A stretch of DNA of 64,000 nucleotides from Actinomycetota bacterium (GCA_018896525.1 JAHIMR010000040.1:11492-75491); one strand, 5' to 3'; positions 3,396 through 50,350 are shown, numbered from the stretch's first letter. Program-made: numbers and translations. Notes: a model not told the origin generated them from the letters alone.

Positions 3396-3518
3396 GCCCC
3401 GCTCCATAAATACGCTCTCGGTGCTCTACCGTATCCATGGAACGGGGCACTGGGTCGCGCGCCTTGCCGGAGCGGCGCCACGCTCTCGGTGCTTAACCGT
3501 ATCTATGGAACGAGGCAC
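3396..3518. repeat. MITE/REP-like palindromic element (family A). A short form with the left TIR joined directly to the right TIR, plus one extra right arm.
   Basis: TGCCCCGCTCCATAAATACG ... CGTATCCATGGAACGGGGCAC followed by ...CGTATCTATGGAACGAGGCAC. The same termini occur at 12 other loci. Confidence 0.9.
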
Positions 3519-3521
3519 TAA

Positions 3522-5810
3522 GTGCCACGAACTGAGTCGCGCTCCACACTGTACCTGACCTGCCTGGGCGCCGCCGTCGCGGGCATCCTTCTGGGCAGGT
3601 ACTCACCCCCGCTGGCCGTTATAGCATTTCTGGCGACGATTGCGGGAGTGGTTGGGGGTGCCTGTCTGGTGTTCCCGGGGGTCTGGAAGGCGGTAGTCAT
3701 TCCCAGTGCTTTCATGGCGCTGGGCATATTGCTCATGTTTCTCGTCGTCGCGGGCATCCGGGGTGGAATACTCCCCCGCCTTGCCTCTGAAGGCCCCACG
3801 ACGACCATAACCGGCAGGGTCGTGTCGGCCCCGGCATCGAGCGGCGGCGGCACATATTTCTTCGTGGAGACCACGGAGGTGCGTGCAGAGGGGCGTCGCT
3901 GGAGGACCAGTGAGAGGGTGCTGGTCCGCATCGACGGTGATGCTTGCGAAGACGCCGTTTTCTCCGGGGTCACGGTGGAGGTCAAAGGGCGAATGTACGA
4001 CAGTGACGCCACAGGCTGGCTCCTGGATAAGGGCGCCGCGACAGTCATCGAACCCGAACCCGGAGGCCTCAAACCGCTCGGGGGGGCGGATCCGGTATCC
4101 CGGCTGGTGCACACGGTACGTGAATGGATGACGGCATCGTATGGTCGCCTGTTCTCCAGGTGCGTGTCCGGCTTCGTCGAAGGTGTGACACTGGGCAGGA
4201 AAGATGACCTGGACCCGGGTATCTCGAGTGATCTTCGCGCCTGCGGGCTTTCTCATATCGTCGCGGTATCAGGGTTGCACGTGGCGGCGGTGGTGGCACT
4301 GGTCCTGGCGGCCGCGTCGGCGATAGGGACGGGAAAGCGAACACGGCTGATGATGGCCTGCGCGGCCGCGTTACTGGTGGTAGGAATGTCCGGCTTTCGG
4401 CCTTCCGCATTAAGGGCGTCGGTGATGGCCGGTCTGGGCTTCGGCGGTATGCTCCTCGGGAGGAAGAACGACCCGTTAAGCGGCCTCTGCCTGGCCGGGT
4501 TCCTGCTCCTGTTCGCCAACCCGAGGGCGCTGTTCGACCCGGGATTCGGGTTCTCGTTTGCCGCCACCGGGGGAATCGTGGTTGTAATCCGCGGCTGTGA
4601 ACGAGAAGGACGCTGGAGGATGCTTGCTGTGGCGTGCGCCGGTGCACAACTGGGGATAATCCCGATGATGCTGGCGAGGGGTGAAGGCGTGCCGGTGACG
4701 GCCATTGCGGCGAACCTTGCGGTACTCCCCCTTGTAGGTCCTCTACTGGTGACAACATGGGGCTCCTGCCTGCTCGGGGCGCTGTCGCCAACGGCCGGCA
4801 AGTTGCTGGCGATTGTGCCCGAGGCGCTGTCACGCCTGATTATTTCTATTGCCGGGTTTCTGTCGGACGTTCCCGGCACAGGGGTTGGCGGCGTCGTGTC
4901 CGTCGTGGCTCTTATCGTCTATATCTGGGGGCTGGTGGCGCTGGTGCTCAGGGCCAGGGAGCGCAGAAGTGTGTTCCGTCCCCTGGTGGCGGTAACCTGC
5001 TCGATCTTGATTGCTATGGCCCCGGTGTTCATCACCGTCACAGTACGGAGCCCGAACAGCATCATAATCATGGACGTCGGGCAGGGTGACGCGATACTGA
5101 TAAGGGACAGCTCAGGGGCGGTCGTGCTTATAGATGGAGGCCCGGATGAGCACCAGGTAGCCGCCAAGCTGAGGTCGCGGGGGGTGCGCAAGATAGACGT
5201 GGTGGTATCCAGCCATCCCCATGCCGATCACATCACCGGACTGGTGGAGGTCCTGGAGGAGTTCCCGGTAGGGCTCCTGCTCGACTCGGGGATGCCTGCC
5301 GAGACATCCGCCTACCGGGAACTGCAGGAAGCCGCCCGGATGAACGGGGTGTCCCGACGGATAGCCCGTGAGGGCCAGGTGATCGAGGTCTCATCACGCC
5401 TGCGGCTCGAGGTCATCTTCGAGCCGGAGCTCTCGCCCGACAGGGAGAACCCTAACAACTGCTCGGTGGTGGTCATGGTTCACCTGGACGGCGCGAAAGC
5501 GCTTATGGCCGCGGACCTGGAGAAGGACGGCCAGCGCGTCATGCTGGGCTTCCACCCCGACCTGTCATGCGACATCCTTAAAGTTCCCCACCAGGGCGCC
5601 TGGGACGCGGCTCTGCCCGAACTGGTCCAATCCACCGACCCGGCGCTGGGCATAGTTTCGGTGGGGGAGGACAACACCTACGGCCACCCGTCAGAGCGGC
5701 ATCTGGAGATGCTGGAGGAGAGAGGCGTCAGGGTTCTGCGGACCGACCTGATGGGCGACATAGAGATATCAGTGGACAGTGGTAGAATCGGGGTGTCCAC
5801 AGGGAGGTGA
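3522..5810 (+). CDS. comEC: DNA internalisation competence protein ComEC/Rec2 (polytopic membrane domain plus C-terminal metallo-beta-lactamase domain).
   Basis: 762 aa with many TM helices, a competence domain and an MBL signature (VVSSHPHADHITG ... VPHQG). The GTG start lies inside the end of the upstream repeat, so the start codon is uncertain. Confidence 0.85.
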   Translation: MPRTESRSTLYLTCLGAAVAGILLGRYSPPLAVIAFLATIAGVVGGACLVFPGVWKAVVIPSAFMALGILLMFLVVAGIRGGILPRLASEGPTTTITGRVVSAPASSGGGTYFFVETTEVRAEGRRWRTSERVLVRIDGDACEDAVFSGVTVEVKGRMYDSDATGWLLDKGAATVIEPEPGGLKPLGGADPVSRLVHTVREWMTASYGRLFSRCVSGFVEGVTLGRKDDLDPGISSDLRACGLSHIVAVSGLHVAAVVALVLAAASAIGTGKRTRLMMACAAALLVVGMSGFRPSALRASVMAGLGFGGMLLGRKNDPLSGLCLAGFLLLFANPRALFDPGFGFSFAATGGIVVVIRGCEREGRWRMLAVACAGAQLGIIPMMLARGEGVPVTAIAANLAVLPLVGPLLVTTWGSCLLGALSPTAGKLLAIVPEALSRLIISIAGFLSDVPGTGVGGVVSVVALIVYIWGLVALVLRARERRSVFRPLVAVTCSILIAMAPVFITVTVRSPNSIIIMDVGQGDAILIRDSSGAVVLIDGGPDEHQVAAKLRSRGVRKIDVVVSSHPHADHITGLVEVLEEFPVGLLLDSGMPAETSAYRELQEAARMNGVSRRIAREGQVIEVSSRLRLEVIFEPELSPDRENPNNCSVVVMVHLDGAKALMAADLEKDGQRVMLGFHPDLSCDILKVPHQGAWDAALPELVQSTDPALGIVSVGEDNTYGHPSERHLEMLEERGVRVLRTDLMGDIEISVDSGRIGVSTGR

Positions 5811-5813
5811 ACG

Positions 5814-6851
5814 ATGGCCGGAAAGCGTGTCGAGGGCATAGATGACCTGAAGAGCGTGTATTACATGCACGGCGACGAGGAACTTCTGATGAAGGAGTCG
5901 CTGGGGAGGCTTCGCAATCTATTCGCGGAGGAGGCGGACGCGGACTTCAACCTCGATATCTTGAACGCCGTGGAAGTCGGGGTCGAGCGGGTTATCGACT
6001 CCGCCCGGACGCTGCCCCTGATGGCGACGCGGCGACTGGTGATAGTGCGGAATGTGGACAAGCTGTCAAAGAAGGACCAGGAAAAACTGGTATCGTACCT
6101 GGACAGCCCCAACCCCGAGACCACGATGGTCCTTATCTCGCGCTTCCCGGAGCCCGGTGCGCCGAAAGACGCCAGGGCCAGGGGCGTCGAGAAATCCGCT
6201 CTTTTCAAGAAGGTAAAGGACACCGGCGAGGTCCTGAAGTTCTCGATGGGGAGGCAGGGGCGCCAGCGAAAGATCGCGGAATGGGTGGATGAGGAGTTCA
6301 GCAAGCGAGGCAAGCGGATAGAGAAGCCAGCGAGGGACCTTCTCCTGGAGATGGTCGGCAGGGAGCTTAGTGACCTGGAGGACGCGGTCGAGCGCATATG
6401 CCTGTTCGCGGCCGACGCAGACGTCATCAGCGCTGAAGTGGTGAGCAGGGTTGTTGTCCCCTCAGGGGAACAGGGAATATTCGAGCTCATCGATGCAGTG
6501 GCCGAACGGCGCAGGGATATCTCGCTGTACATGCTCAACAGGCTGATACGCCAGGGAGAAAGCCCCCAGAGGATATTCGGCCTGCTCCTGCGGCAGTTCC
6601 GCCTGATTGCCAGGGTCAAGGTGCTCGCCACCGAGCGTGACAGCGGGGCCATCGCTTCCGAACTGGGTATCCCGCCTTTCGTGGTGGGCAAGTGCATAAG
6701 GCAGTCCAAGAAGTTCTCGACCGATTCGCTCCGCAAACTGTTCTCCGAGTTCAAAACGGCCCAGTTGAACCTTTATTCCACCGGGTACCTGGAGGAAAAG
6801 GAGTACCGTACTGCGGTGCTGGAGAGTTTAATATTCAAGATAATCGGGTAG
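5814..6851 (+). CDS. holA: DNA polymerase III delta subunit.
   Basis: 345 aa with clamp-loader delta architecture. It sits directly after comEC, as in Firmicutes and Actinobacteria. RBS GGGAGGTGAACG precedes the ATG. Confidence 0.8.
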   Translation: MAGKRVEGIDDLKSVYYMHGDEELLMKESLGRLRNLFAEEADADFNLDILNAVEVGVERVIDSARTLPLMATRRLVIVRNVDKLSKKDQEKLVSYLDSPNPETTMVLISRFPEPGAPKDARARGVEKSALFKKVKDTGEVLKFSMGRQGRQRKIAEWVDEEFSKRGKRIEKPARDLLLEMVGRELSDLEDAVERICLFAADADVISAEVVSRVVVPSGEQGIFELIDAVAERRRDISLYMLNRLIRQGESPQRIFGLLLRQFRLIARVKVLATERDSGAIASELGIPPFVVGKCIRQSKKFSTDSLRKLFSEFKTAQLNLYSTGYLEEKEYRTAVLESLIFKIIG

Positions 6852-6860
6852 CCGACGGCG

Positions 6861-7124
6861 CTACTTCATATCGTTCAGAACATACGACATACGGGATTTC
6901 TTGTTGGCGGCCTTGTTCTTGTGGATGACTCCCTTGGAAGCGGCCTTGTCGAGTAAACGGGAGGCACTGGCGTATCTCTCTCGCGCTTCCTCGATATCTT
7001 CTGACTTTACGGCCTTTTCGAACCGATGGATACTGCTTTTCAAGGCGCTCCTAACCGACCGATTGCGCTTCCGTTGCTTCTCGGATATTCTCAATCTCTT
7101 TACCTGCGACTTGATCTGGGGCAT
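6861..7124 (-). CDS. rpsT: 30S ribosomal protein S20.
   Basis: The C-terminal 87 aa of the 309-aa ORF read MPQIKSQVKRLRISEKQRKRNRSVRSALKSSIHRFEKAVKSEDIEEARERYASASRLLDKAASKGVIHKNKAANKKSRMSYVLNDMK, a typical bS20. The ATG was verified at 7122-7124 on the - strand. The upstream part of that ORF is non-coding. Confidence 0.9.
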   Translation of the reverse strand: MPQIKSQVKRLRISEKQRKRNRSVRSALKSSIHRFEKAVKSEDIEEARERYASASRLLDKAASKGVIHKNKAANKKSRMSYVLNDMK

Positions 7125-7197
7125 TATCACTTCCTTTTCTTGAGGGATTCTAGCACAGCGGTTATTTGATGTCGAACCTATTTTGTTTGGCGTTGTC

Positions 7198-7378
7198 GTG
7201 TGTAAGACGGGGGACAGGCCCGCTGATGCATAACGAGCATCGCTTGAGTGGTATAAACAACGACACCAGCTTGGGCCAGTCCCCGTTTGATTGACGGGGG
7301 ACAGGCCCGCCGTTGCATTATGGAGAGCGGTTTGGGTGGAGAGACGAACGCAACACCTGAGCCAGGCACCGTTTGGGT
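7198..7378. repeat. Mosaic repeat family B, copy 4. It has a tandem duplication of GACGGGGGACAGGCCCGC-YGWTGCATWA modules, then a GTTGCATTATGGAGAGCGGTTTGGGTGGAG...AACGCAACACCTGAGCCAGGCACC module.
   Basis: Shares 20-60-nt blocks with 54146-54410, 58809-58990 and 59625-59830 (e.g. CGTTGCATTA-GGAGA-CGGTTTG-GTGGAG, AACGCAACACCTGAGCCAGGCACC, TTGGGCCAG-CCCCGTTTG). It lies in the divergent rpsT / lepA intergenic region. Confidence 0.8.
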
Positions 7379-7382
7379 GGCG

Positions 7383-9239: not shown

Positions 9240-9277
9240 TAACGCTACCAGGGGCCGCAAGGCCGAAAGCGAGCTTG

Positions 9278-9304
9278 TTAGCACTCTTTGCGGGTGAGTG
9301 CTAA
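9278..9304 (+). promoter_or_regulatory. CIRCE operator (HrcA binding site), TTAGCACTC-N9-GAGTGCTAA, a perfect match to the consensus. It overlaps a TAAAAT -10-like hexamer.
   Basis: Read directly at 9278-9286 and 9296-9304, 26 nt upstream of the hrcA ATG. Confidence 0.9.
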
Positions 9305-9329
9305 AATTGAGGCGAGGAACAGGATTGAA

Positions 9330-10367
9330 ATGGTTAGAGAGATAGACGATCGAAAAAAGAAGATACTGCGGGCGGTGGTCCAGGGGTTCATACTTACCGG
9401 CAATCCGGTAGGCTCGAAGTCGGCCGCAAAGGCATCAGGGCTCCGCATCAGTCCGGCGACAGTCAGGAACGAGATGGCTGTCCTGGAGAAACTGGGATTG
9501 CTGGAGCAGCCGTACACGTCCGCCGGACGGGTGCCTACAGACCTGGCGTACCGGTACTACGTGGATATGCTTATGGAACAGCAGAAGCCTTCCGGCAGAG
9601 ACGCCGAGGCGGTCGAGAAGCTGTTCGCGGTGAAGACGCGGGAGGTGGAGGGGTTCTTCAGGGAAGCGTCTCTGATCCTGTCGAACCTGACCCACGCCAC
9701 AGCGATGGTGTTCGCGCCGTTAGGCACGGCCGACAAGGTCAGGCATATTGACCTGGTCCGCATGAATGGACCCGGGGTGATGGTAATTATAATAACCGAC
9801 CGGGGACAGGTCGGAAGGCGCCTGTTAGGCCTGGCGAACCCGGTAGAGGACGATACATTGGATAGGGTATGCGATTACCTTGACCGGTCGCTGTCCGGCG
9901 TGGGGCTGGACGCGATCGACGCCAAGGCCTTGATCGAGCGGTTCCGGTTTGGAAAGGCCGGCGTAGATCTATTGAGCGGCGCTCTCGAAGCGGTACGCGA
10001 GTACCTGGGCACTGTCGAGGAGCGCGTCTACGTGGGGGGCACCGCCAACATAGTGAGGGAGATGGATTCCGCGGGAACCGAATGGGTCCAGTTGCTGCTA
10101 GAGTCAATGGAGAAGCAGTACTTCATCCTGGACCTTTTAAAGGACCTCGTCAGCGGGGAGCGTCTGACGGTCCGGATAGGTGAGGAAAACCGCCTGAGAG
10201 AGCTCAGGAAATGCAGTTTCGTCGGCACCAGTTACCCTGCCGGCCGGGGGCTGTTCGGTTCGCTCGGAGTAGTAGGCCCCACTTGCATGGACTATGCCCG
10301 AACGATTGGGATGGTTGAGCTGATGGCCGATAGCCTGGGTCAGAGGCTCTGGGGGCCGGTGGATTAA
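9330..10367 (+). CDS. hrcA: Heat-inducible transcription repressor HrcA.
   Basis: N-terminal winged-helix region (RKKKILRAVVQGFILTGNPVGSKSAAKASGLRISPATVRNEMAVLEKLGLL), about 345 aa, autoregulated via the upstream CIRCE. The start was moved to ATG 9330, with GAGGCGAGG as RBS. Confidence 0.9.
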   Translation: MVREIDDRKKKILRAVVQGFILTGNPVGSKSAAKASGLRISPATVRNEMAVLEKLGLLEQPYTSAGRVPTDLAYRYYVDMLMEQQKPSGRDAEAVEKLFAVKTREVEGFFREASLILSNLTHATAMVFAPLGTADKVRHIDLVRMNGPGVMVIIITDRGQVGRRLLGLANPVEDDTLDRVCDYLDRSLSGVGLDAIDAKALIERFRFGKAGVDLLSGALEAVREYLGTVEERVYVGGTANIVREMDSAGTEWVQLLLESMEKQYFILDLLKDLVSGERLTVRIGEENRLRELRKCSFVGTSYPAGRGLFGSLGVVGPTCMDYARTIGMVELMADSLGQRLWGPVD

Positions 10368-10529
10368 GTGCCTAGCTCCATAAATACGCTGGCATTCGAA
10401 CCCCGCTGCATCCACACCGGCTGCGTTCCGCTCCCTAGAAGTACTACAGGAGTACGTCTAGGTCGCGCGCCTTGCCGGAGTGGCGCTTCGACGCTCTCGG
10501 TGCTTAACCGTATCTATGGAACGAGGCAC
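10368..10529. repeat. MITE/REP-like element family A, full-length copy (left arm, centre GTACTACAGGAGTAC, right arm).
   Basis: 21-bp TIRs GTGCC(T/C)(A/C)GCTCCATAAATACG ... CGTATCTATGGAACGAGGCAC. It fills the entire hrcA-dnaJ intergenic region. Confidence 0.9.
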
Positions 10530-10550
10530 AAGGAAGTAATAAGAGGATGA

Positions 10551-11645: not shown

Positions 11646-11713
11646 AACGCCCGGCTCGCCCATTCGGCAGGTTACCCGGGGGGCACCGGCAAGATATCAT
11701 ATGCCCTTTCTAG

Positions 11714-11768
11714 TGCCCCGTCTCACAAATACGCTGGCATTCGAACGCCGCTGCATCCACACCGGCTA
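11714..11768. repeat. Family A element, isolated left arm only.
   Basis: GTGCCCCGTCTCACAAATACGCTGGCATTCGAACGCCGCTGCATCCACACCGGCT with no partner arm. Confidence 0.8.
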
Positions 11769-11804: not shown

Positions 11805-13052
11805 GTGAAAGAGCGCACCTATCGCGTCATTACACTGGGCTGCCGGGTCAACCGCTCCGATTCGCTGGAGATAGAAAAGGAGCTTTCAAGGCGTTCCTTT
11901 GAGCGGTCGCCCCCGGGGGAGCCGCCGGATCTCTGGGTGGTAAACACCTGCGCGGTTACCGTGGAGGGTATGAGGAAGTCGCGCAAGGCGGTGAGGAAGT
12001 GCCTGCGGGCCGGGGGGGAAGTGGTAGTGACCGGCTGCGCGGTTGCCTTTGACCCGGGGGCGTTCGAGGAAATGGGCGTAAGCGTGCTGGTGGGGAACGA
12101 GCAAAAAGGGAGCCTGGCAGGGATCGCCTGCGGGCCGGCACTCGGTCCCGACCCGGTGGCGCCGGGCCAGCCGGAACTGACGCGCGTCCCGATCAAGGTG
12201 CAGGACGGGTGCCGGAGGTACTGTACCTACTGTATCGTGCCGTACCTCAGGGGCCGCCCTTACTGCCGGGATGTTGAATCGGTTGTTGCCGATGTGCGCT
12301 ATTACAGAGACGCCGGGGCGGGTGAGGTGATACTTTGTGGGATCGACCTGGGGAGTTATAGAGACCCATCCACCAAAGAGGGATTGGAACTCCTGGCATT
12401 GAAAGCGGCCGAGGAGGCCGGTGATATGTGGGTGCGCTTGAGCTCGTTGGACCTGACGGACGTAAGCGAGCGGCTGATTTCCATGCTGGGTGAGGGTGAA
12501 AACCTGTGCGGGCATCTGCACATCCCCCTGCAGAGCGCTGACCGCGGGGTGCTTGGCGACATGGGGCGTGGGTACGGGCCGGAGGAGTTTCGAAGAAAGG
12601 TGGACGAGATAAGGCGCAAGGTGCCGGACGTCATCGTTACCACCGATGTCATGGTGGGGTTCCCTACCGAGGACGAGCGTGCTTTTGAGAACACCCGGTC
12701 CTTCCTCGAGGAGATGTCTTTCTCGCGGGTCCACGTGTTCAGGTACTCGCCGAGGCCCGGGACGGCGGCGTTCTCACTGGGGGACCCCGTGGGTCCGACG
12801 GAAAAGCGGGAAAGGGCCACGGAGCTTCGTCGTATCGCGAGAGAGACCGCGAAGAGGTTTCACGAGAGCCTCATTGGTCGTATAATCGCAGTATTGATAG
12901 AGGCGGAGATGGAGACCGAGCCGGGCATGGTGTTCGGACGAACGCAGGGTTTTGCCGGGATAATAGCGCCGGGGGACGGTGGCATGGTGGGGAGGAAGGT
13001 ACTCATGCGGGTTACATCCGCCGGGCCGCGGTGGATTCGAGGCGAGCCATAA
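11805..13052 (+). CDS. mtaB: MiaB-like tRNA methylthiotransferase, MtaB/YqeV type (MTTase N domain, radical-SAM core, TRAM domain).
   Basis: 415 aa with an N-terminal cysteine triad (LGCRVN ... NTCAV ... GCAV), radical-SAM CRRYCTYCIVP and a C-terminal TRAM domain. Sits after dnaJ as yqeV does in Firmicutes. Confidence 0.8.
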   Translation: MKERTYRVITLGCRVNRSDSLEIEKELSRRSFERSPPGEPPDLWVVNTCAVTVEGMRKSRKAVRKCLRAGGEVVVTGCAVAFDPGAFEEMGVSVLVGNEQKGSLAGIACGPALGPDPVAPGQPELTRVPIKVQDGCRRYCTYCIVPYLRGRPYCRDVESVVADVRYYRDAGAGEVILCGIDLGSYRDPSTKEGLELLALKAAEEAGDMWVRLSSLDLTDVSERLISMLGEGENLCGHLHIPLQSADRGVLGDMGRGYGPEEFRRKVDEIRRKVPDVIVTTDVMVGFPTEDERAFENTRSFLEEMSFSRVHVFRYSPRPGTAAFSLGDPVGPTEKRERATELRRIARETAKRFHESLIGRIIAVLIEAEMETEPGMVFGRTQGFAGIIAPGDGGMVGRKVLMRVTSAGPRWIRGEP

Positions 13053-13141
13053 GTACGGTTGCGCACCGAGAGCGTGGCGCCGCTCCGGCAAGGCGCGTGA
13101 CTCAGTGCCCCGTTCCATGGATACGGTTAAGCACCGAGAGC
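13053..13141. repeat. Family A element, right-arm type in reverse orientation.
   Basis: ...GCACCGAGAGCGTGGCGCCGCTCCGGCAAGGCGCGTGACTCAGTGCCCCGTTCCATGGATACGGTTAAGCACCGAGAGCGC. Confidence 0.8.
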
Positions 13142-13183
13142 GCATTTTGTGGAGCGGGGTACTAAAACAGAGAGGGAAGGTGA

Positions 13184-13584: not shown

Positions 13585-14031
13585 ATGAACACCAAGGAGA
13601 GGTTACGGCTCGATATGAAAGAGTCATTGAAGGCCGGCGAAAAGCTCAGGCTTTCGACGATCAGGATTATGTTATCGGAGATAGGGAACGCCGAGATAGC
13701 GAAACGGGATGAGCTCTCCGAGGAGGAGATGGTCACAGTTGTGACCCGGGAGGCCAAGAGGAGGAAGGAAGCCATTGAGGAGTATGGGAAGGCGGGGCGA
13801 CAGGACCTGGTGGACAAGGAATCGTTCGAGTACTCCGTCATCGAGTCTTACCTGCCCAGGCAGCTGGAGGAGACCGAGATACGAAGGATGATCGAAGAGG
13901 CCGTTGAGGAGACAGGAGCGTCTTCACCGGGTGACCTGGGGAAGGTGATGTCTGCCGTGATGCCCCGCCTCAAGGGCAAGGCGGACGGCAGGACGGTGAA
14001 CCTGATGGCCCGAGAGATACTTGGAGAGTAA
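13585..14031 (+). CDS. yqeY: GatB/YqeY-domain protein.
   Basis: About 148 aa, all-helical and charged, matching the YqeY family. The start was moved to ATG 13585 (the ORF-track start at 13519 overlaps the HIT gene). Confidence 0.7.
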   Translation: MNTKERLRLDMKESLKAGEKLRLSTIRIMLSEIGNAEIAKRDELSEEEMVTVVTREAKRRKEAIEEYGKAGRQDLVDKESFEYSVIESYLPRQLEETEIRRMIEEAVEETGASSPGDLGKVMSAVMPRLKGKADGRTVNLMAREILGE

Positions 14032-14194
14032 GTGCTCCATTCCACAAACACGCTGGCATTCGAACGCCGCTGCATCCACACCGGCCGCGTTCCGCTCCTC
14101 AGACGTACTACAGGAGTACGTCTCAGTCGCGCGCCTTGCCGGAGCGGCGCATCGACGCTCTCGGTGCTTAACCGTGTTTACGGAACGGAGCAAC
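14031..14194. repeat. Family A element, full length, degenerate termini.
   Basis: GTGCTCCATTCCACAAACACGCTGGCATTCGAACGCCGCTGCATCCACACCGG ... CGTACTACAGGAGTACGTC ... GGTGCTTAACCGTGTTTACGGAACGGAGCAAC. Confidence 0.9.
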
Positions 14195-20364: not shown

Positions 20365-20473
20365 ATGGTGGACAATAGTGGATTTGAACCACCGACTCCA
20401 GGCACGCGGAAATCAGGGTTCAAATACACTCGGATGTAATGATAAACAAACGGTCCGCGAGCAAACGCACAGA
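20365..20473 (+). ncRNA. Conserved ~110-nt structured element (copy 1): 9-bp stem ATTTGAACC / GGTTCAAAT closing a 26-nt loop, then a conserved tail ...CGAGCAAACGCACAGAAGCAA. It is 68 nt upstream of yggS.
   Basis: A second copy at 39775-39885 has the same stem with a compensatory C:G to T:A change and an identical 26-nt loop length. The GGTTCAAAT(CC) T-loop-like sequence does not extend to a full tRNA. Confidence 0.45.
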
Positions 20474-23704: not shown

Positions 23705-23716
23705 TCCGGTCCGTTA

Positions 23717-23879
23717 GTGTTCCGTCCCATGGGTAGCTTTACGCACCGAGAGCGTCGATGCGCCACTCCGGCAAGGCGCGTGACCGAGGCTGTACTCACG
23801 TAGTACGCCGAGGGAGCGGAACGCAGCCGGTGTGGATGCAGCGGGGTTCGAATGCCAAGATATCTGTGGGACGGAGCAC
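23717..23879. repeat. Family A element, full length, reverse orientation.
   Basis: GTGTTCCGTCCCATGGGTAGCTTTACGCACCGAGAGCGTCGATGCGCC ... ATATCTGTGGGACGGAGCAC. Confidence 0.9.
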
Positions 23880-23953
23880 TAGACTGTTTAGAAAGCGACG
23901 GACGTTCGGGCAGGTAAGGTCAATCGGGCGTATTCGAGGTTTTGAGGAACTCG

Positions 23954-26055: not shown

Positions 26056-26065
26056 CATGGGGAAT

Positions 26066-26460
26066 AAGTCCCCCGCTCCACAGATACGCTGGCATTCGAA
26101 CGCCGCTCCCGTCCACTCCGGCTGCGTTCCGCTCCCTCGGCGTACTAGAGAAGTACGGATAAGTCCCCCGCTACACAGATACGCTGGCATTCGAACGCCG
26201 CTGCATCCACTCCGGCTGCGTTCCGCTCCCTCGGCGTACTAGAGAAGTACGTCTCGGTCGCGCGCCTTGCCGGAGCGACGCTTCGACGCTCTCGGTGCTT
26301 AACCGTATCTATGGAACGGGGCACTGAGTCGCGCGCCTTGCCGGAGCGGCGCCACGCTCTCGGTACGTAACCGTATTTATGGAACGGGGCACTGAGTCGC
26401 GCGCCTTGACGGAGCGATGCCACGCTCTCGGTACGTAACCGTATTTATGGAACGGGGGAC
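26066..26460. repeat. Family A nested array: 2 tandem left arms, 1 centre, 3 tandem right arms (about 395 bp).
   Basis: Left arm twice (…CCCCCGCT(C/A)CACAGATACGCTGGCATTCGAACGCCGCT…CTCCGGCTGCGTTCCGCTCCCTCGGCGTACTAGAGAAGTACG…). Right arm three times (GTCGCGCGCCTTGCCGGAGCG..GC..CGCTCTCGGT.C.TAACCGTATTTATGGAACGGGG.AC). It fills the recA-recX gap. Confidence 0.9.
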
Positions 26461-26463
26461 TAA

Positions 26464-28656: not shown

Positions 28657-28668
28657 AGATGGCTACTT

Positions 28669-28831
28669 AGTACCCCGCTCCATAGATACGCTGGCATTCG
28701 AACGCCGCTGCATCCACACCGGCTGCGTTCCGCTCCCTCGACGTACTCCAGGAGTACGACTCGGTCACGCGCCTTGCCGGAGCGGCGCTTCGACGCTCTC
28801 GGTGCTTAACCGTATCTATGGAACGAGGCAC
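28669..28831. repeat. Family A element, full length.
   Basis: TACCCCGCTCCATAGATACGCTGGCATTCGAACGCCGCTGCATCCACACCGGCTGCGTTCCGCTCCCTCGACGTACTCCAGGAGTACGACTCGGTCACGCGCCTTGCCGGAGCGGCGCTTCGACGCTCTCGGTGCTTAACCGTATCTATGGAACGAGGCAC. Confidence 0.9.
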
Positions 28832-28890
28832 TTGAATTCGCGACGCACACCTGCGGGTCATGAGTCAAGCCGGACGAACTCGAGTAAACG

Positions 28891-29997: not shown

Positions 29998-30929
29998 TGT
30001 CGGGGTCAGGCCTTAGGCGAAGAACGGTGCTTCAAATCATCATCGCGCTACTGGTGTTGCTTGCGGCATCGGGGATTGCCGAGTATTTTCTGCACAGGGC
30101 CCGGTCGAACGCCGCTAGCGTGAAGGAATACCACGAGGTCGTAGCAAGTGACTGGGGCAAGACCGTCGAGCGCTCGGAGAGCGTAAACACGGCCCTCACC
30201 GGAGTGGTTTCACCAGCTGATCTCGGGAGCGTGGCGAGCGCCGCGGGGCTTATGAGGGGAGAGCTCCAGGGGATTCTGGACGCGCGTGAGAAAAACCCGC
30301 CTCCGTCGGGCGAACGAAACCTCGCCGGAGCGGAGACGGAGTGCTTGACCTCACTGGACCGTTACCTTGAGATGGTTGAAGAGCTTGCTACGGGTGGTGA
30401 TGAGGAGAGCATTGTGGAGGACCGGGCACTGTTGGAAAGCCGCGCGGCTCAGGCGCTTTCAAAGGTCAACGACTTCCTCTTCAACGCGGAGTTCACCGGA
30501 GACCAGATATCAGGTGAATTCTTCAGGGCGGGTGAATCCCTGGCAAACGCGTTCGCCCCGCCAGAGTGGCAGAGCGCTGAAGAAGAGGTGGCGTACGGGA
30601 TAGTCAACAGTTTCATGGACGCGGACATCAAGGAGTTTAACCCGGACGTGCTCTGGTCACTATCTTCGAGCAAGCGTATCGAGGGCCTGAGGTTAATGGG
30701 AGTCACAAGGGAGAACTTCGCCGAGGGCTGGATTGACGCCCGGGGCGAGGAGAAGCATCCGGTGGATTTCCACGTCAGCAGGCGCGGCATCGTGTTTACT
30801 CCATCCACCGTTGAGTTGGAGGTAGTCGTATACCTGGAGCGCGGTGCCCCCTGGAGAGAAACCGTTCGCCTGGTGAGGGAAGCTGATGGATGGAAAGTGG
30901 AAGGATATCCGTTTGTGGGCTGGCTGTAG
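29997..30929 (+). CDS. Membrane-anchored (single N-terminal TM) extracytoplasmic protein of unknown function, co-operonic with the GHKL ATPase (ATGA-type overlap).
   Basis: MSGSGLRRRTVLQIIIALLVLLAASGIAEYF signal anchor, a helical region, then a beta-rich C-terminus. No recognisable motif. Confidence 0.5.
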   Translation: MSGSGLRRRTVLQIIIALLVLLAASGIAEYFLHRARSNAASVKEYHEVVASDWGKTVERSESVNTALTGVVSPADLGSVASAAGLMRGELQGILDAREKNPPPSGERNLAGAETECLTSLDRYLEMVEELATGGDEESIVEDRALLESRAAQALSKVNDFLFNAEFTGDQISGEFFRAGESLANAFAPPEWQSAEEEVAYGIVNSFMDADIKEFNPDVLWSLSSSKRIEGLRLMGVTRENFAEGWIDARGEEKHPVDFHVSRRGIVFTPSTVELEVVVYLERGAPWRETVRLVREADGWKVEGYPFVGWL

Positions 30930-31255
30930 TGCCCCGTCTCACAAATACAATGGCATTCGAACGCCGCTGCATCCACACCGGCTGCGTTCCGCTCCCTCGA
31001 AGTACTAAGGAAGTACGTATGAGTACCCCGCTCCATAGATACGCTGGCATTCGAACGCCGATGCATCCACACCGGCTGCGTTCCGCTCCCTCGAAGTACT
31101 ACAGAAGTACGTCTCGGTCACGCGCCTTGCCGGAGCGGCGCATCGACGCTCTCGGTGCTGAACCGTATCTATGGAGCGAGGCACTGAGTCACGCGCCTTG
31201 CCGGAGCGGCGCACCGACGCTCTCGGTGCGTCACCGTACTTATGAGACGGGACAC
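30929..31255. repeat. Family A array: left arm, left arm plus centre plus 2 right arms.
   Basis: GTGCCCCGTCTCACAAATACAATGGCATTCGAACGCCGCTGCATCCACACCGGCTGCGTTCCGCTCCCTCGAAGTACT... repeated, ending ...CGGTGCGTCACCGTACTTATGAGACGGGACAC. Confidence 0.9.
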
Positions 31256-31370
31256 TAGTGTTTGTGATAGACAGGGACGATGTTTTAAAATGGACTGATT
31301 ATCGCCGAAGAGCGCGGTGAGTGACTCAAGCGATTCCAGCGGATAGAGGTTTGCGAGGGGGAACGGGTAG

Positions 31371-37545: not shown

Positions 37546-37608
37546 TACCGAGTCGTTCTCTCCTGTATTATACTAACCAGTGTCCGAATATGCCTTTCAT
37601 GTTCATAA

Positions 37609-37772
37609 GTGCCCCGTTCCATGAATACGGTTAAGCACCGAGAGCGTCGAAGCGCCACTCCGGCAAGGCGCGCGACCGAGTCGTACTCCTGGAGTACGTC
37701 GAGGGAGCGGAACGCAGTCGGTGTGGACGGGAGCGGCGTTCGAATGCCAGCGTATTTATGGAGCGGGGCACT
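37609..37772. repeat. Family A element, full length, reverse orientation.
   Basis: GTGCCCCGTTCCATGAATACGGTTAAGCACCGAGAGCGTCGAAGCGCC ... GTATTTATGGAGCGGGGCAC. Confidence 0.9.
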
Positions 37773-37904
37773 AAGAGCGAGCGTGAAGGACCAGATGACC
37801 GATAGTGATTTATCGAACAAACGAATAGGAAGCGTGGAATGCCCCAGAAGCGCGATTGCTGCGGTGGGAGGGGTATTGTCTTGATCTAGTGTCGGGAAAG
37901 GGCG

Positions 37905-39774: not shown

Positions 39775-39885
39775 GACGGTGGACCCGGCTGGATTTGAAC
39801 TACTTACTAAAGACCAGCGATAATCAAAGTTCAAATACAGCCGGGCGAAACGATGTACAAGCGTTCCACGAGCAAACGCACACAA
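39775..39885 (+). ncRNA. Conserved ~110-nt structured element (copy 2): stem ATTTGAACT / AGTTCAAAT, 26-nt loop, tail ...CGAGCAAACGCACACAAGCAA. It is 38 nt upstream of the Nramp gene.
   Basis: See copy 1 at 20365-20473. The covarying base pair is nt 39801 paired with 39828. Confidence 0.45.
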
Positions 39886-39922
39886 GCAAGCGGTATTGGA
39901 ACATCTAAGCTGGTGAATAACG

Positions 39923-41161
39923 GTGAAAAAGAGAAAATGTATCAAGCGGGAAGCGCTGATGTACGCCGCGGTGGCCGGGCCCGGTATCGTCACCGCGCTG
40001 GCGGGCAACGGCGCGAGCGGGATAACCACCTACTCGGTGATCGGCTCCAGGTTTGGCCTTTCCCTGGTCTGGCTGCTCACCATATGCACGGTCAGTCTCG
40101 CGGTCTTCCAGGAGATGTCGGCGCGCATGGGCGCTGTCACCGGCAAGGGGCTTGCTTCCCTCATCAGGGAGCGTTTTGGGCTTCGTCTCACATTCTTTGC
40201 GATGATGGTCCTGCTGGTGGCCAACGTCGCCATAACCATCGCGGAGTTCGCCGGAGTAGCCGCCAGCCTCGAGCTTTTCGGTTTGAGCAAGTACATCACC
40301 GTTCCCGCGATCGCCATCTTTATCTGGGTGGTGGTTACCAAAGGCTCCTTCAGCAGAGTGGAGAAGGTTTTTCTCGCCATCTGCCTTATCCAGGTCTCCT
40401 ACCTGATTTCCGGCTTCATGGTAAAGCCCGATTGGGGACAGGTTGCCCTGGCGATGGTGAAACCGGAGGTAAGCACGAATCCGGCGTTCGTGCTCGCCGC
40501 GATCGCCATCGTGGGAACCACCGTGGCGCCGTGGATGCAGTTCTTTGTGCAGTCGAACGTGGTGGACAAGGGAATCGATATGGCGGAGTACAAGTACGAG
40601 AGGATGGACGTGATAACCGGGTCGATCCTCTCGAACGTGATATCCCTGTTCATCATCATATGCACCGCGTTTACTCTCTTTCCCGTCCAGGTGGTGGAGA
40701 CGGCCGAGCAGGCCGCCGTGGCATTGAGTCCCCTGGCCGGGTCTGGCGCCAAATGGCTTTTCGGATTCGGGCTTTTCGGCGCCTCCATGCTTGCCGCCAG
40801 CGTCGTTCCGCTTTCAACCTCCTACGCGGTGTGCGAGGCTTTCGGCTGGGAGAGCGGTATAGGGAGAAAGCTTTCCGAGGCCCCCATCTTCTTCGGCATA
40901 TACTCGCTGTCCATACTGCTGGGTGTCGTCGTGGTGCTTATTCCCGGCGTTTCGCTGGTGAGGATAATGTTGTTGGCCCAGGAACTCAATGGTATACTCT
41001 TGCCGGTTATCTTGATTTTCATGCTGACAATCGTCAACGATCCGCAGATAATGGGGGAGCACGTTAACGGACCGGCGGCCAACGCGATCGCCTGGATCAC
41101 CGCTTGCGGGGCATTCGTCCTGGGACTGGTGCTGTTTGTAACCGGAATGTTCGCGCTCTAA
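39923..41161 (+). CDS. mntH: Nramp-family divalent metal (Mn2+/Fe2+) transporter.
   Basis: AGPGIVTALAGNGASG (Nramp DPGN-like signature region), 11-12 TM helices, 412 aa. Confidence 0.85.
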   Translation: MKKRKCIKREALMYAAVAGPGIVTALAGNGASGITTYSVIGSRFGLSLVWLLTICTVSLAVFQEMSARMGAVTGKGLASLIRERFGLRLTFFAMMVLLVANVAITIAEFAGVAASLELFGLSKYITVPAIAIFIWVVVTKGSFSRVEKVFLAICLIQVSYLISGFMVKPDWGQVALAMVKPEVSTNPAFVLAAIAIVGTTVAPWMQFFVQSNVVDKGIDMAEYKYERMDVITGSILSNVISLFIIICTAFTLFPVQVVETAEQAAVALSPLAGSGAKWLFGFGLFGASMLAASVVPLSTSYAVCEAFGWESGIGRKLSEAPIFFGIYSLSILLGVVVVLIPGVSLVRIMLLAQELNGILLPVILIFMLTIVNDPQIMGEHVNGPAANAIAWITACGAFVLGLVLFVTGMFAL

Positions 41162-41162
41162 T

Positions 41163-41319
41163 GCCACGCTCCATAAATACACTGGCATTCGAACGCCGCT
41201 GCATCCACACCGGCCGCGTTCCGCTCCCTCGGCGTACTACAGGAGTACGACTCGGTCGCGCGCCTTGCCGGAGCGGCGTCACGCTCTCGGTGCTTAACCG
41301 TATCTATGGAACGAGGCAG
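41163..41319. repeat. Family A element, full length. Its right terminus GGAACGAGGCAG supplies the Shine-Dalgarno for the next gene.
   Basis: TGCCACGCTCCATAAATACACTGGCATTCGAACGCC ... CGTACTACAGGAGTACGACTCGGTCGCGCGCC ... CGTATCTATGGAACGAGGCAG, then TAACTA and the ATG at 41326. Confidence 0.9.
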
Positions 41320-41325
41320 TAACTA

Positions 41326-42645: not shown

Positions 42646-42732
42646 GCCACGGCGAGCCACTCACTCCTGGCGCGGTTCCGCTTGGATTAAGTTTGATTGT
42701 CAAAGGAGTATAATAAAACCGGTGATGAAAAA

Positions 42733-43203: not shown

Positions 43204-43263
43204 GAACCGCGCGTCCCGGGCCAACCCCTCTCGTAACCGCGCCGCGGCCATGATCGCAACTAG

Positions 43264-43587
43264 TGCCCCGTCTCATAGAATACAATGGCATTCGAACGCC
43301 GCTGCATCCACACCGGCTGCGTTCCGCTCCCTCGAAGTACTACAGGAGTACGTTCTAGTGCCCCGCTCCATGGATACGCTGGCATTCGAACGCCGCCGCA
43401 TCCACACCGGCCGCGTTCCGCTCCCTCGACGTACTACAGGAGTACGTCTCAGTCGCGCGCCTTGCCGGAGCGGCGCTTCGACGCTCTCGGTGCTTAACCG
43501 TATCCATGGAACGGGGCACTTGGTCGCGCGCCTTGCCGGAGCGGCGCCACGCTCTCGGTGCGTCACCGTATTTATGAGACGGGACAC
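43264..43587. repeat. Family A array: left arm, then a full element, then an extra right arm (about 325 bp).
   Basis: GTGCCCCGTCTCATAGAATACAATGGCATTCGAACGCCGCTGCATCCACACCGGCTGCGTTCCGCTCCCTCGAAGTACTACAGGAGTACG + GTGCCCCGCTCCATGGATACG...CCATGGAACGGGGCAC + ...CGTATTTATGAGACGGGACAC. Confidence 0.9.
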
Positions 43588-43623
43588 TGGATCCCCGGGG
43601 CAATCACGGCGGAGAACGGTAAC

Positions 43624-44649: not shown

Positions 44650-44818
44650 CAAAAACCTCATAACACTCATAATATTACTTATTCAACGATATTAACATAA
44701 GTTATCAATAGTTGATTTTTCTTATCAGAAGTGTTAAGTTATATAAGCTTATAGCACGATATCTACTATAGGGTTTAGTAGTTGCAGTGACCGTATGCTA
44801 TCGCTCAAGGTTTAGGGT

Positions 44819-45811: not shown

Positions 45812-45839
45812 CCCAGGGCCCGTCTCTATCCACTTTCGA

Positions 45840-46550: not shown

Positions 46551-46554
46551 ACTG

Positions 46555-47907: not shown

Positions 47908-47910
47908 CGG

Positions 47911-48612
47911 CTACTCGCGCCTGGCGGCTATCCCCCCTACCGCCGCTACCAATCCTAGAGCGGCTCCCGCGAGCCCTACGTAGAGGCCTGAACCAACATT
48001 GGATAAAGACAGGGTGTTAACCACGTCGGCGATGTCTATCACGAATATCGCTCCGGTTATTATTGTGACTATCAGGCCCACCACGAACGGCCACCGGGCC
48101 TTCCCGATAAGCCCTACCAGGAAGAACGCGCCGGCTATGACCGCAAAGAAGAGGGTTATCTTTCCGTCTCCCTCCATCCCGCCTTTACTCGCGTAGAACG
48201 CCTGTGCCCATGGTAGAAACGATCCGATCATCACTATCATCATCGCCGCCAGACCGACACCGCCCCATATCTGCGCGCCGGAAGACGTTGTTGCACCCGA
48301 GCGCGCCGCCCGCTGTACGGGGTAACGAGCCGCCGCCGGCATCCCCGGTTGCTGGGTCATCCCCGGTGGGGGAGACATTGGCGGCGGTGCCGCTCCAGGA
48401 AGAGGGGCTGTCGGTGGTGGCGCCACTCCGGGTGGAGGTGCCACCGGGACGACCGCCGGAGGAGCCTGGGCGGCCGGCGCGGACGGCGGCGGCGTTCCCG
48501 TCGGTGACGGTGGGGGAACGGCGGGGGCCTCCAGTGGGCTCCCGCAGAACTGACAGAACTTCGCCTCAGCCGTTTCTCTGCCGCAACTCTTGCATGTGGC
48601 CACTTTCATCAC
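47911..48612 (-). CDS. Membrane protein: N-terminal C4 zinc ribbon, ~80-aa Pro/Ala-rich linker, 4-TM domain paralogous to the gene upstream of it.
   Basis: CKSCG...CQFCG. The TM core GDGKITLFFAVIAGAFFLVGLIGKARWPFVVGLIV aligns with GDGKILLALGATCFIFLVLGAWRGKRAFFGIVFL of the 48632-49111 product. Confidence 0.6.
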   Translation of the reverse strand: MMKVATCKSCGRETAEAKFCQFCGSPLEAPAVPPPSPTGTPPPSAPAAQAPPAVVPVAPPPGVAPPPTAPLPGAAPPPMSPPPGMTQQPGMPAAARYPVQRAARSGATTSSGAQIWGGVGLAAMMIVMIGSFLPWAQAFYASKGGMEGDGKITLFFAVIAGAFFLVGLIGKARWPFVVGLIVTIITGAIFVIDIADVVNTLSLSNVGSGLYVGLAGAALGLVAAVGGIAARRE

Positions 48613-48631
48613 CTCGCATATCTAGACGACT

Positions 48632-49111
48632 TCAGGTTTCCTTCCGCGCTTCCGGCTCACTCTTGAGTAACGAGTAGCCGCACTGACCGGCGAGCATTCC
48701 GGCGACGCTGGCAAGAAGCGCTATATAGAGGCCGGTTCCGGGGCCGGTTATACCCGGTCGGGTCAGAAGAAAGATTATCTCGTAAGAGGACAGGAGGAGC
48801 GCCACCACCGAGCAGAGGAACACTATCCCGAAAAAAGCTCTCTTGCCCCGCCACGCTCCCAGAACCAGGAATATGAAACAGGTCGCCCCCAGCGCCAGCA
48901 GTATCTTGCCGTCACCGGAAACCAGGTTGGCGTAATGCCAGCCCGACTCGGTGTAGAGCCCGAGCACGGAGTCGGAGCGCCAGGTGAGGAAGCACCCCAG
49001 GATCATCATGGATACCGCCAGCACAATCCCCAGTGCGGTGGTGACGAGGGTGGCGACCTTGACCTTTGTTTCCACCCTGCCTTCCATCGTCCGGGACTCT
49101 TCTCTATTCAT
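48632..49111 (-). CDS. 4-TM membrane protein, paralogue of the TM domain of the 47911-48612 product.
   Basis: See the paralogue alignment above. 159 aa. Start overlaps the stop of the upstream methyltransferase gene. Confidence 0.6.
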   Translation of the reverse strand: MNREESRTMEGRVETKVKVATLVTTALGIVLAVSMMILGCFLTWRSDSVLGLYTESGWHYANLVSGDGKILLALGATCFIFLVLGAWRGKRAFFGIVFLCSVVALLLSSYEIIFLLTRPGITGPGTGLYIALLASVAGMLAGQCGYSLLKSEPEARKET

Positions 49112-49920
49112 CGACTACCTCTACTCAACAGCCCGTTCCTGAACGCCTTTACGTATCCCCTGCAGTACCGGTCGGATCCGGCGACCGCCTCCGCCGCGTA
49201 TATGGTGGATACCAGTTCTCTGTCCATGGGGTCCATCAGCAACGCGTCGAGGCCCATGAATACCGCCGCCGCCAGCATCGACCGGTTCACCAGCGAGCGC
49301 ATCGGCAGGCCGAAAGACACGTTGCTCAGGCCCAGGACCGTCTTCACCTCCGGAAACTCGTCCCTGATGAGGGAAAGGGCTTCCAGCGTGACCCGGCCCT
49401 GCCCGGAGTCGGCGCTTATCGGGAGCGCCAGCGGGTCCAGGAACACGCTCTCTTCGGGTACGCCGAACTCACGGGCCGCGCCCAGTATCCCGCGGCACAC
49501 CTCCAGGCGTCCCGCCGGCGTCTCCGGAATGCCCGACTCGTCCATCGCCAGGGCGACGACCCGGCATCCGTGACGGGCAACAAGGGGAAGCACTCCCTCG
49601 AGCCGCGCCCGCTCCCCGTTCACCGAGTTGATGAAAAGACCCTCACGGCCGTACAGCTCCAGGCACCGCTCGAGGACCTCCGGGTCGGAGGAGTCCAGCG
49701 CCAGCGGCTTGCCCGTGGCTTCCTTCACTACTTCCACCGCCCACTCCATGGATTCGAGCTCACTCGCTCCTGAGCCGGTGCCGACATTCACGTCTATGTA
49801 ATCCGCCCCCGCCTCCGCCTGCGAAGACGCGAGGCCGGCCAGGAAGCCGTTGTCACGCCGGACGATGGCGTCTCCCACCTCGTCGATACTACCGTTTATC
49901 TTTTCTCCGATGATAATCAT
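49108..49920 (-). CDS. Pterin-binding methyltransferase of the AcsE/MtrH/MetH-pterin-domain family (methyl-tetrahydrofolate:corrinoid-type methyltransferase).
   Basis: MIIIGEKING at the N-terminus and TVLGLSNVSFGLPMRSLVNRSMLAAAVFMGLDALLMDP. Both closely resemble the MeTr/AcsE signature (IIGERING, GLSNVS.....R.L.NR.FL..A...GLDAAI.D). It is not DHPS-like. Confidence 0.75.
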   Translation of the reverse strand: MIIIGEKINGSIDEVGDAIVRRDNGFLAGLASSQAEAGADYIDVNVGTGSGASELESMEWAVEVVKEATGKPLALDSSDPEVLERCLELYGREGLFINSVNGERARLEGVLPLVARHGCRVVALAMDESGIPETPAGRLEVCRGILGAAREFGVPEESVFLDPLALPISADSGQGRVTLEALSLIRDEFPEVKTVLGLSNVSFGLPMRSLVNRSMLAAAVFMGLDALLMDPMDRELVSTIYAAEAVAGSDRYCRGYVKAFRNGLLSRGSR

Positions 49921-50024
49921 TTCCGCTCCCGGAAAAACGGCCTTTCACTGCCCTTATGCTAACAGATACCCGGAACTGTCACAGTTCCCGTCCTGGTCTC
50001 CGAGCAACAACGGGCGGCCTATAG

Positions 50025-50350
50025 TGCCCCGTCTCACAAATACAATGGCATTCGAACGCCGCTGCATCCACACCGGCTGCGTTCCGCTCCCTCGAAGTAC
50101 TACAGGAGTACGTTTTAGTACCCCGCTCCATAAATACGCCGGCATTCGAACGCCGCTGCATCCACTCCGGCTGCGTTCCGCTCCCTCGAAGTACTCCAGA
50201 AGTACGTCTCGGTCGCGCGCCTTGCCGGAGCGGCGCTTCGACGCTCTCGGTGCTCAACCGTATCTATGGAACGGGGCACTGAGTCGCGCGCCTTGCCGGA
50301 GCGGCGCTTCGACGCTCTCGGTGCATCACAGTACTTATGAGACGGGACAC
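50025..50350. repeat. Family A array: left arm, then a full element, then an extra right arm.
   Basis: GTGCCCCGTCTCACAAATACAATGGC... + GTACCCCGCTCCATAAATACGCC... + ...GGTGCATCACAGTACTTATGAGACGGGACAC. Confidence 0.9.

Follow-up and report, generated by a model that had tools for sequence, protein, structure and literature searches.

An apparently undescribed and widespread family of miniature inverted-repeat elements with an atypical, RNA-like core

Introduction

[quoted passage not shown] Among those described in bacteria, ERIC/IRU and YPAL of the Enterobacteriaceae (Yersinia, E. coli) fold into long RNA hairpins that are able to alter mRNA decay (PMC3184786, PMC10969869). Here we analyze a repeat of about 165 bp that occurs at 13 loci in a 64,000-nucleotide (nt) stretch of DNA from an Actinomycetota bacterium (GCA_018896525.1, JAHIMR010000040.1:11492-75491), the whole of which we call the window. 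In this repeat the usual pattern is reversed. The family appears to be both undescribed and widespread, and its core appears RNA-like, which is atypical of MITEs. We consider it probable that the repeat is a MITE mobilized in trans, with a conserved, strand-specific interior that is selected in a form most likely to be RNA.

The ERIC/IRU and YPAL elements resemble this repeat in being imperfect palindromes (127 to 170 bp) that are multicopy, intergenic, and often located 3' of genes, and presumably also in their TA-flanked insertion, the lack of a known transposase, and an interior conserved between genera. They are, however, confined to one bacterial family or order, whereas the element studied here spans at least four phyla, and we know of no report on ERIC comparable to the quantified strand-specific excess of G-U pairs, or to the stronger conservation of the core than of the terminal repeats, that we describe below. 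The Correia elements of Neisseria (NEMIS/CREE) are MITEs of about 100 to 160 bp, which duplicate a TA and reach a similar genomic density. Their terminal repeats are the conserved, functional part, and the family is genus specific; in our element it is the interior that is conserved, and the terminal stem is variable. Correia elements are cotranscribed with neighboring genes, and the hairpin formed by their terminal repeats is cut by RNase III (PMC10969869). With its TA flanks and long predicted RNA hairpin, our element works like the ERIC and Correia types, a likeness that does not extend to an assignment of membership by sequence. No sequence similarity is known to link it to the ERIC, YPAL, or Correia consensus.

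REP/BIME sequences are likewise abundant, GC-rich, intergenic palindromes that also occur in clusters and arrays. REPs are hairpins of 20 to 40 nt, with a conserved 5' tetranucleotide and without terminal inverted repeats or target duplication (PMC3184786). In contrast, the present element forms one hairpin of 165 nt that has terminal repeats and TA-centered duplications and shows no strand bias, and no RAYT is present among the 30 window ORFs scanned. Its terminal repeats and duplications, together with an even orientation relative to GC skew (32:30), also set it apart from the IS200/IS605-derived PATEs and other single-strand transposons, which have subterminal hairpins, lack both terminal repeats and duplications, and insert with a bias to the lagging-strand template. 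Finally, Chunjie (Geobacter) and Nezha (cyanobacteria) are MITEs of 130 to 235 bp with terminal repeats of about 21 bp, which were recognized through filled and empty sites and have very stable predicted RNA hairpins, of about -98 to -130 kcal/mol; Chunjie is A+T rich with 9-bp duplications, and Nezha shares its ends with ISNpu3 (PMC3184786). Both are restricted to a few related species, whereas our element is GC rich, has 2- to 4-bp TA-centered duplications and no identified parent insertion sequence, and occurs in several phyla.

Results and Discussion

Architecture of the repeat family

A first-pass annotation of the window had proposed a dense family of palindromic elements of about 165 bp, with 21-bp terminal inverted repeats, at 13 intergenic loci, and this outline is borne out. 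In profile searches with both halves of the element, copies fall at exactly 13 loci (3394-50351); together these loci span 2,690 bp, which is 5.7% of that stretch. The 21-nt consensus of the terminal repeat has 25 matches in the window with at most three mismatches, where 100 dinucleotide-preserving shuffles give an expectation of 0, and the center motif has 16 matches, again against an expectation of 0. Ten full copies align with a mean column identity of 88% to a consensus of 167 nt that agrees with the first-pass description, and a repeat search of the window recovered the same repeat families. Full copies measure 162 to 168 nt and composites up to 398 nt, and the listing of open reading frames (ORFs) contains no gene inside the copies. 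The ends form a 19- to 21-bp terminal inverted repeat, which is the outer stem of a hairpin, and the center, announced as a perfect palindrome, turned out to be a 7-bp stem with a 5-nt loop. Every copy had been placed in a gap between genes; this holds for 12 loci, whereas at 13044-13165 a degenerate outer end overlaps the last codons and the stop codon of mtaB. The recA-recX gap, to which a single center had been assigned, contains two center hairpins by our count.

Pairing and strand asymmetry

The two arms of the element pair with each other along some 75 positions to give one hairpin, and no hairpin within either arm alone is supported by covariation. Folding of one full copy (28667-28833) produced the long imperfect hairpin that had been anticipated, at -99.2 kcal/mol (z = -9.2) on the minus strand versus -69.9 kcal/mol on the plus strand, and the consensus likewise folds better on the favored strand than on the other (-88 versus -51 kcal/mol). 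Relative to the orientation used in the first-pass annotation, this favored, or folded, strand is the reverse complement. Its interior is a nearly continuous irregular hairpin with a variable apical stem-loop, internal loops that are fixed (CCGA/GAA and, within GGAUGC, a bulged A), and conserved G-U pairs.

We quantified the covariation over 45 pairs in 89 diverse copies, using five measures and 500 shuffles, and on each of the five measures the observed value was reached by none of the shuffles. Pairing was found in 95.9% of the cells, versus 82.0% in the shuffled alignments and 30 to 42% when the partners were slid, and 525 cells were changed on both sides, versus 130 after shuffling and 54 to 102 after sliding. 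The outer helix (21 pairs) is 95.4% paired over the 89 copies, and compensatory changes are also present in internal helices 3, 5, and 7, away from the ends. The mismatches that a single transition produces are strongly asymmetric, since on the favored strand G-U occurs in 413 cells and A-C in 36, or at 29 versus 4 pair positions. Certain G-U pairs come close to fixation, such as that of columns 57-138, which is G-U in 80 of the 89 copies.

Coevolution of two ends that bind a transposase, or gene conversion between the arms, would keep the palindrome but would leave the asymmetry between G-U and A-C without a reason, whereas selection on a folded single strand provides one. These observations point to selection acting on one folded strand, most simply as RNA, which is the simplest candidate because the insertion orientation is random (see below). 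Since all copies inherit the fixed G-U pairs whatever their orientation, the selection must operate on those lineages from which new copies arise, and the RNA may serve the element itself.

Three narrower readings of the conserved sequence were rejected. The motif GGCGUUCGAAUGCC looks like the T-arm of a tRNA, but it pairs with the opposite arm with compensatory changes, and the soil subfamily introduced below has GUCGAAU in place of UUCGAAU. A small peptide starting at the conserved ATG of GGATGCA is countered by the lack of a ribosome-binding site and by substitutions that track base pairing and not codons. The ends TTAGTGC...GCACTAA recall CIRCE, the HrcA operator, but the half-site of the CIRCE consensus is TTAGCAC and not TTAGTGC, and the copies are dispersed.

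Conservation and spread of the core

The element is not confined to the window, as copies are present on other contigs of the same organism and in other organisms. A scan of GTDB with a 23-base core motif, taking one representative genome per species, retrieved full elements from four phyla, in three Actinomycetota metagenome-assembled genomes (MAGs) and in one MAG each from the Gemmatimonadota, the Acidobacteriota, and the Deferrimicrobiaceae (Desulfobacterota). In addition, an independent motif from the other half of the element matches at least 119 contigs in metagenomes of soil, sediment, and groundwater; a gene adjoining one copy of a soil subfamily is closest to Vicinamibacterales (Acidobacteriota), at 77 to 78%. 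The family had been supposed to be lineage specific, which does not agree with a core found in at least four phyla.

An interior of about 125 nt is common to the Actinomycetota, Acidobacteriota, Gemmatimonadota, and Desulfobacterota genomes. Between lineages, the outer stem of 19 to 21 bp and the apical hairpin vary yet remain paired, while the interior is near-constant. Within the half of the element that did not serve for the search, conservation of at least 90% is reached by 27 of 49 and by 38 of 50 columns, as against only 2 to 9 of the 23 columns of the outer stem. The interior is thus far better conserved than the terminal inverted repeats. This conservation, the presence in several phyla, and the strand-specific, RNA-like covariation are all atypical of a MITE. 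In the Acidobacteriota MAG CAVVTR01, the core lies without TA flanks inside a 348-bp repeat that has different terminal repeats (CTAGGAGGC..TTGCAC) and a longer stem, with copies at 347-694 and 5832-6100 of fetched locus L015 and at 2979-3326 of L022, one of which has lost its central part. This suggests that the core can ride on different carrier elements.

No published description of the family was found, in keeping with the first-pass annotation. The whole window has no match in Rfam 15 at gathering thresholds, and permissive searches (E ≤ 10 with one copy, E ≤ 1 with nine diverse loci) returned only chance matches to microRNAs. The element has no match among PLSDB plasmids and IMG/VR viral contigs, and a text search of the literature with core sequence strings was also negative.

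A bolder proposal than ours would make the core a new and widespread class of structured noncoding RNA that spreads between phyla on interchangeable MITE chassis, the RNA being needed for propagation, for instance as a cofactor or regulator of the transposase or by processing itself. Such a role would account both for the greater conservation of the core than of the terminal repeats and for the selection of pairing on one strand wherever copies land, and yet we judge the full proposal unlikely.

Filled and empty sites

Evidence for mobility comes from a sister species (loci L029-L031), whose RNase Y is 85% identical to that of the window host and which has the same gene order with short gaps. 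Five syntenic sites are element free in this species, namely, divIVA-thpR, recA-recX, rny and its next gene, the site before the DUF948 gene, and ftsR-mgtE. The recA-recX gap measures 93 nt in the sister species versus 517 nt in the window, that from rny to the next gene 64 versus 234 nt, and that before the DUF948 gene 133 versus 441 nt. The reciprocal case also exists, as a copy immediately precedes the start codon of the acylphosphatase gene in the sister species, upstream of the gene and at a site that is empty in the window. Before the DUF948 gene, a lone TAG in the sister species, with which the upstream gene stops, corresponds to TAG-element-TAG in the window. Other copies are flanked by TAA/TAA or TTA/TTA, and many by CTA and TAG, so that the flanks are TA centered (TA, TNA, or YTAR); those of the soil subfamily are CTAG, TTAG, or TTAA on both sides, and 9 of 14 copies have identical YTAR flanks, whereas none of 500 shuffles gave more than 8. 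For five of the 13 insertions in the window, the TA target is the upstream gene's stop codon, TAA or TAG (stop codons at 3391-3393, 10365-10367, 14029-14031, 30927-30929, and 41159-41161). Metagenome contigs break at copies of the element. In sum, it is a mobile, multicopy, noncoding repeat with TA-centered target use, and the initial description as a multicopy, intergenic, palindromic, mobile MITE family is supported.

Terminal repeats, TA-centered flanks, random orientation, and filled and empty sites are the classic features of MITEs, and they would also fit an ordinary element that functions as DNA only. Its arms would be complementary because they bind the same transposase or host factor or undergo gene conversion, and its interior would hold protein sites on double-stranded DNA; inverted repeats do coevolve without RNA, and no promoter lies within the element. 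This explanation leaves without a reason that G-U is eleven times commoner than A-C on one strand and that G-U pairs such as that of columns 57-138 are fixed across phyla, and it must contend with compensatory changes that extend into internal helices 3, 5, and 7. We hold it to be unlikely.

Insertion orientation and the mobilizing system

In the window, the folded strand is the minus strand at 10 loci and the plus strand at 3. Over all loci, it is sense to codirectional flanking genes in 16 cases and antisense in 18, it coincides with the G-rich strand in 32 cases and with the C-rich one in 30, and copies are located between convergent genes in 17 cases versus between divergent genes in 5. 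The orientation is thus random relative to genes and to GC skew. Known single-strand transposons (IS608/ISDra2) have a strong bias to the lagging-strand template, and a random orientation therefore fits double-strand cut-and-paste and misfits the bias of such elements.

These data bear on the possibility that the folded species is single-stranded DNA recognized by an HUH enzyme or a tyrosine recombinase, as in IS200/IS605, REP-RAYT, or attC-like systems. Strand-specific folding, the tolerance of DNA hairpins for G-T pairs, the very high density, and the intergenic location would all be accommodated, and the first-pass annotation had accordingly likened the arms to the Y- and Z-REP units of BIMEs mobilized by RAYT transposases. 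We find instead that the arms make up the opposing strands of a single hairpin of 165 nt and are not self-palindromic REP units, that the element bears full-length terminal inverted repeats and flanking duplications, neither of which occurs in IS200/IS605, REPs, or attC, and that there is no orientation bias relative to GC skew (32:30) or to genes. Moreover, no IS200-like tnpA was found with NCBIfam or Pfam among the ORFs scanned, 30 of about 41 in the window; precomputed Pfam labels cover 17 to 38 kb of the window via the identical locus L023. We regard single-stranded DNA as the folded species as quite improbable.

We give still less credit to a short interspersed element (SINE)-like retroelement, in which the folded RNA would be the intermediate, copied by a reverse transcriptase encoded elsewhere. 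In its favor, the fold of one strand is selected in master lineages wherever copies lie, and one copy hosts, on the same strand, a group II intron with a reverse transcriptase. However, short, sequence-specific TA, TNA, or YTAR flanks with precise terminal inverted repeats are textbook signs of DDE cut-and-paste rather than target-primed reverse transcription, the element has neither an internal promoter nor a 3' tail, and the intron is an insertion with the expected GTGCG start, all of which makes this very improbable. Lastly, stationary noncoding RNA genes or cis-regulatory leaders duplicated along with their neighbors would account for a conserved, covarying structure that is always intergenic, but they are hardly credible given the empty syntenic sites of the sister species, the copies nested within copies, the unrelated neighbor genes, the random orientation, and the contigs that break at the element.

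Returning to a trans-mobilized MITE with an RNA-like interior, we propose that a transposase encoded elsewhere in the genome would cut and paste the element in trans, inserting it at TA-containing targets, often a TAA or TAG stop codon, with a presumed duplication of 2 to 4 bp (TA, TNA, or YTAR). TA duplications mark IS630/Tc1-mariner elements, and TNA and YTAR mark the IS5/PIF-Harbinger group; because the flanks observed here are TA, TNA, or YTAR, the enzyme would be a DDE transposase of one of these kinds. The element may then be viewed as a variable "chassis," the terminal inverted repeats, carrying a strongly conserved interior of about 125 nt. RNA of the folded strand would be made by read-through when a copy lies in the right orientation, and this long, irregular RNA duplex, whose internal loops are fixed, would be of the type recognized by RNase III-type or other RNA-binding proteins. 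Such a protein-recognized double-stranded module might serve in RNA processing or stability or in control of the partner transposase.

Several observations weigh against this proposal. Neither a transposase with matching ends nor an autonomous insertion sequence with the terminal repeats of the element was found in the window or in about 1 Mb of fetched loci, and extra occurrences of the copies' terminal 16-mers adjoin no transposase. In the same shuffles as above, target preference alone largely accounts for the flank identity of the main subfamily, the duplication may be of 2, 3, or 4 bp, and only one empty-site comparison is clean; its length is left at 2 to 4 bp because so much of the flank identity reflects target preference. 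The element contains no recognizable promoter or terminator, so that any RNA must arise by read-through. Copies are as often antisense as sense to their neighbors, which argues against a host-selected role in cis for most of them. Finally, the folding of the same strand as single-stranded DNA would also explain an asymmetry between G-T and A-C.

Promoter-like sites are present just outside two copies, and the sequence of one of them (31262-31291) also occurs in the empty site of the sister species. Two types of candidate partner or autonomous element were discarded. The recurrent neighbor proteins (acyl-CoA dehydrogenases, CCG/Fe-S proteins, and thiolases) are metabolic paralogues, and apparent lone half-elements are divergent full copies, nested-hairpin copies, deletion "mini" copies, or, in one case, a copy split by a group II intron.

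If RNA is indeed the selected form, the family would represent an abundant undescribed RNA class and a tractable case for a long-standing question posed by ERIC-like repeats, namely, why the conservation of some intergenic repeats reaches far past that of host genes. The element also breaks metagenome assemblies in these lineages, makes up about 6% of this housekeeping region, and often supplies or abuts stop codons, and it therefore matters for the annotation of these uncultured groups.

Host and genomic context

Judging from RNase Y and gene order, the window host is an uncultured Actinomycetota bacterium related to Candidatus (Ca.) Geothermincolia. The MAGs GCA_018896075.1 and GCA_018898375.1 have the same RNase Y protein and gene order as the window, as do contigs of ENA ERZ27247108 and JGI 3300013391. 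The nearest named relatives are Ca. Anoxymicrobiaceae (77%), which is placed within the class Ca. Geothermincolia of the Actinomycetota, and Ca. Solincola (65%); no copy of the element is present within 21.6 kb in the 77% relative. The names of the MAGs suggest deep groundwater as the habitat. The genes that flank the copies are housekeeping genes, namely, leuS, comEA, comEC, holA, lepA, hrcA, dnaJ, mtaB, phoH, divIVA, thpR, recA, recX, rny, ftsR, and mgtE.

Copies in the window

Full single copies occupy six loci. On the minus strand, these are 10366-10531, in the hrcA-dnaJ gap and right after the TAA stop of hrcA; 14029-14193, upstream of phoH and beginning at the TAA stop of the upstream gene; 28667-28833, downstream of rny, which served for the single-sequence folds; and 41159-41320, which has a 3-nt deletion and also begins at the TAA stop of the upstream gene. 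On the plus strand, which is then the folded strand, they are 23715-23882, downstream of divIVA, and 37607-37774, in the ftsR-mgtE gap with TAA/TAA flanks, and both of these sites are empty in the sister species.

The element can also insert into itself, at a TNA immediately before the center hairpin, which gives rise to nested doubles and arrays. Three loci (30927, 43261, and 50022) are nested double elements, all on the minus strand. At 30927-31257, the outer copy lies between TAG and TAG, in place of the lone TAG of the sister species, and a full inner copy (31021-31185, flanks TCA/TCA) lies just before the center hairpin of the outer one. The double element at 43261-43588 has the same architecture, with 84% identity over 300 nt, and that at 50022-50351, located between divergent genes, is 93% identical to 30927-31257 over 300 nt. 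The recA-recX array (26065-26462, minus strand) consists of two 3' halves, each with a center hairpin, and three 5' halves, and is flanked as a whole by TAA...TAA.

The remaining loci are partial. Deletion "mini" copies of about 60 nt are found at two of them (3394 and 13104). The composite remnant at 3394-3520 (minus strand), which fills the comEA-comEC gap and abuts the TAG stop of comEA, comprises a mini copy of about 57 nt, in which the terminal repeat is fused to the other end (3394-3450), and a truncated 5' half (3453-3520). At 13044-13165 (plus strand), a truncated 5' half (13044-13102) is followed by a mini copy (13104-13165); the stop codon of mtaB (13050-13052) lies inside the degenerate outer stem, so that the last codons of mtaB come from the element. 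The solo fragment at 11710-11767 (minus strand), in the dnaJ-mtaB gap, consists of the outermost 58 nt of the folded strand's 3' half.

Variants beyond the window and other features

Outside the window, variants with insertions of about 80 nt at fixed points of the 3' half were found at L036, L110, and L141 and at L061 and L072; like the embedding of the core in the 348-bp Acidobacteriota repeat, we count these among the traits that resemble those of RNAs. The soil copies L093, L117, L147, L041, and L046 have GC-rich hairpin repeats of about 35 nt (GGGGxCCCCAxCGCGGCxGCCGCGxTGGGG) inserted at various points, which form a second, REP-like layer of nested repeats. On the soil contig Ga0307305_10016231 (L046, 597-2553), a group II intron splits an element of the soil subfamily immediately 3' of the central hairpin. 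It starts with GTGCG, carries an ORF (1071-2393) for a 440-amino-acid reverse transcriptase/maturase with a YADD motif, and shares its strand with the folded strand; the element's hairpin may be a homing site of the intron.

Four other features of the window deserve mention. An intergenic pair of about 112 nt, 74% identical, is located at 20369-20456 and at about 39790-39889, both on the minus strand. The first copy ends in a tRNA-like T-arm, an acceptor 3' strand, and CCA (GGAGTCGGTGGTTCAAATCCACTATTGTCCACCA), and the second aligns to it with changes. The score with the Rfam tRNA model is only 17.5 bits (gathering threshold, 29), and ARAGORN finds no tRNA or tmRNA in the window; tRNA-derived remnants, duplications of an attachment site, or a tRNA-like small RNA could account for it. 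A second, unrelated modular repeat family occurs at 54145-54318, 58808-58926, and 59624-59706. It consists of a terminator-like hairpin (GACGCACTGGTGCC...GGCACCAGTGCGTC and then a T-run) followed by conserved blocks (GAGGGAGGGGT.TCGCCC ... CGGGGATGGCGGTTCTTGTCTGACCGCCGCTTGT), has no Rfam match, and includes one copy without the 43-nt middle block. Upstream of lepA, a 35-nt direct repeat (CGTGTGTAAGACGGGGGACAGGCCCGCTGATGCAT) is present at 7197-7231 and 7284-7318, with copies that are 83% identical and 87 nt apart. The nrdD gene for anaerobic ribonucleotide reductase (60483-63800, minus strand) is split by an intein with a LAGLIDADG-like domain, the region matching the Pfam families NRDD, Intein_splicing, and LAGLIDADG_3.

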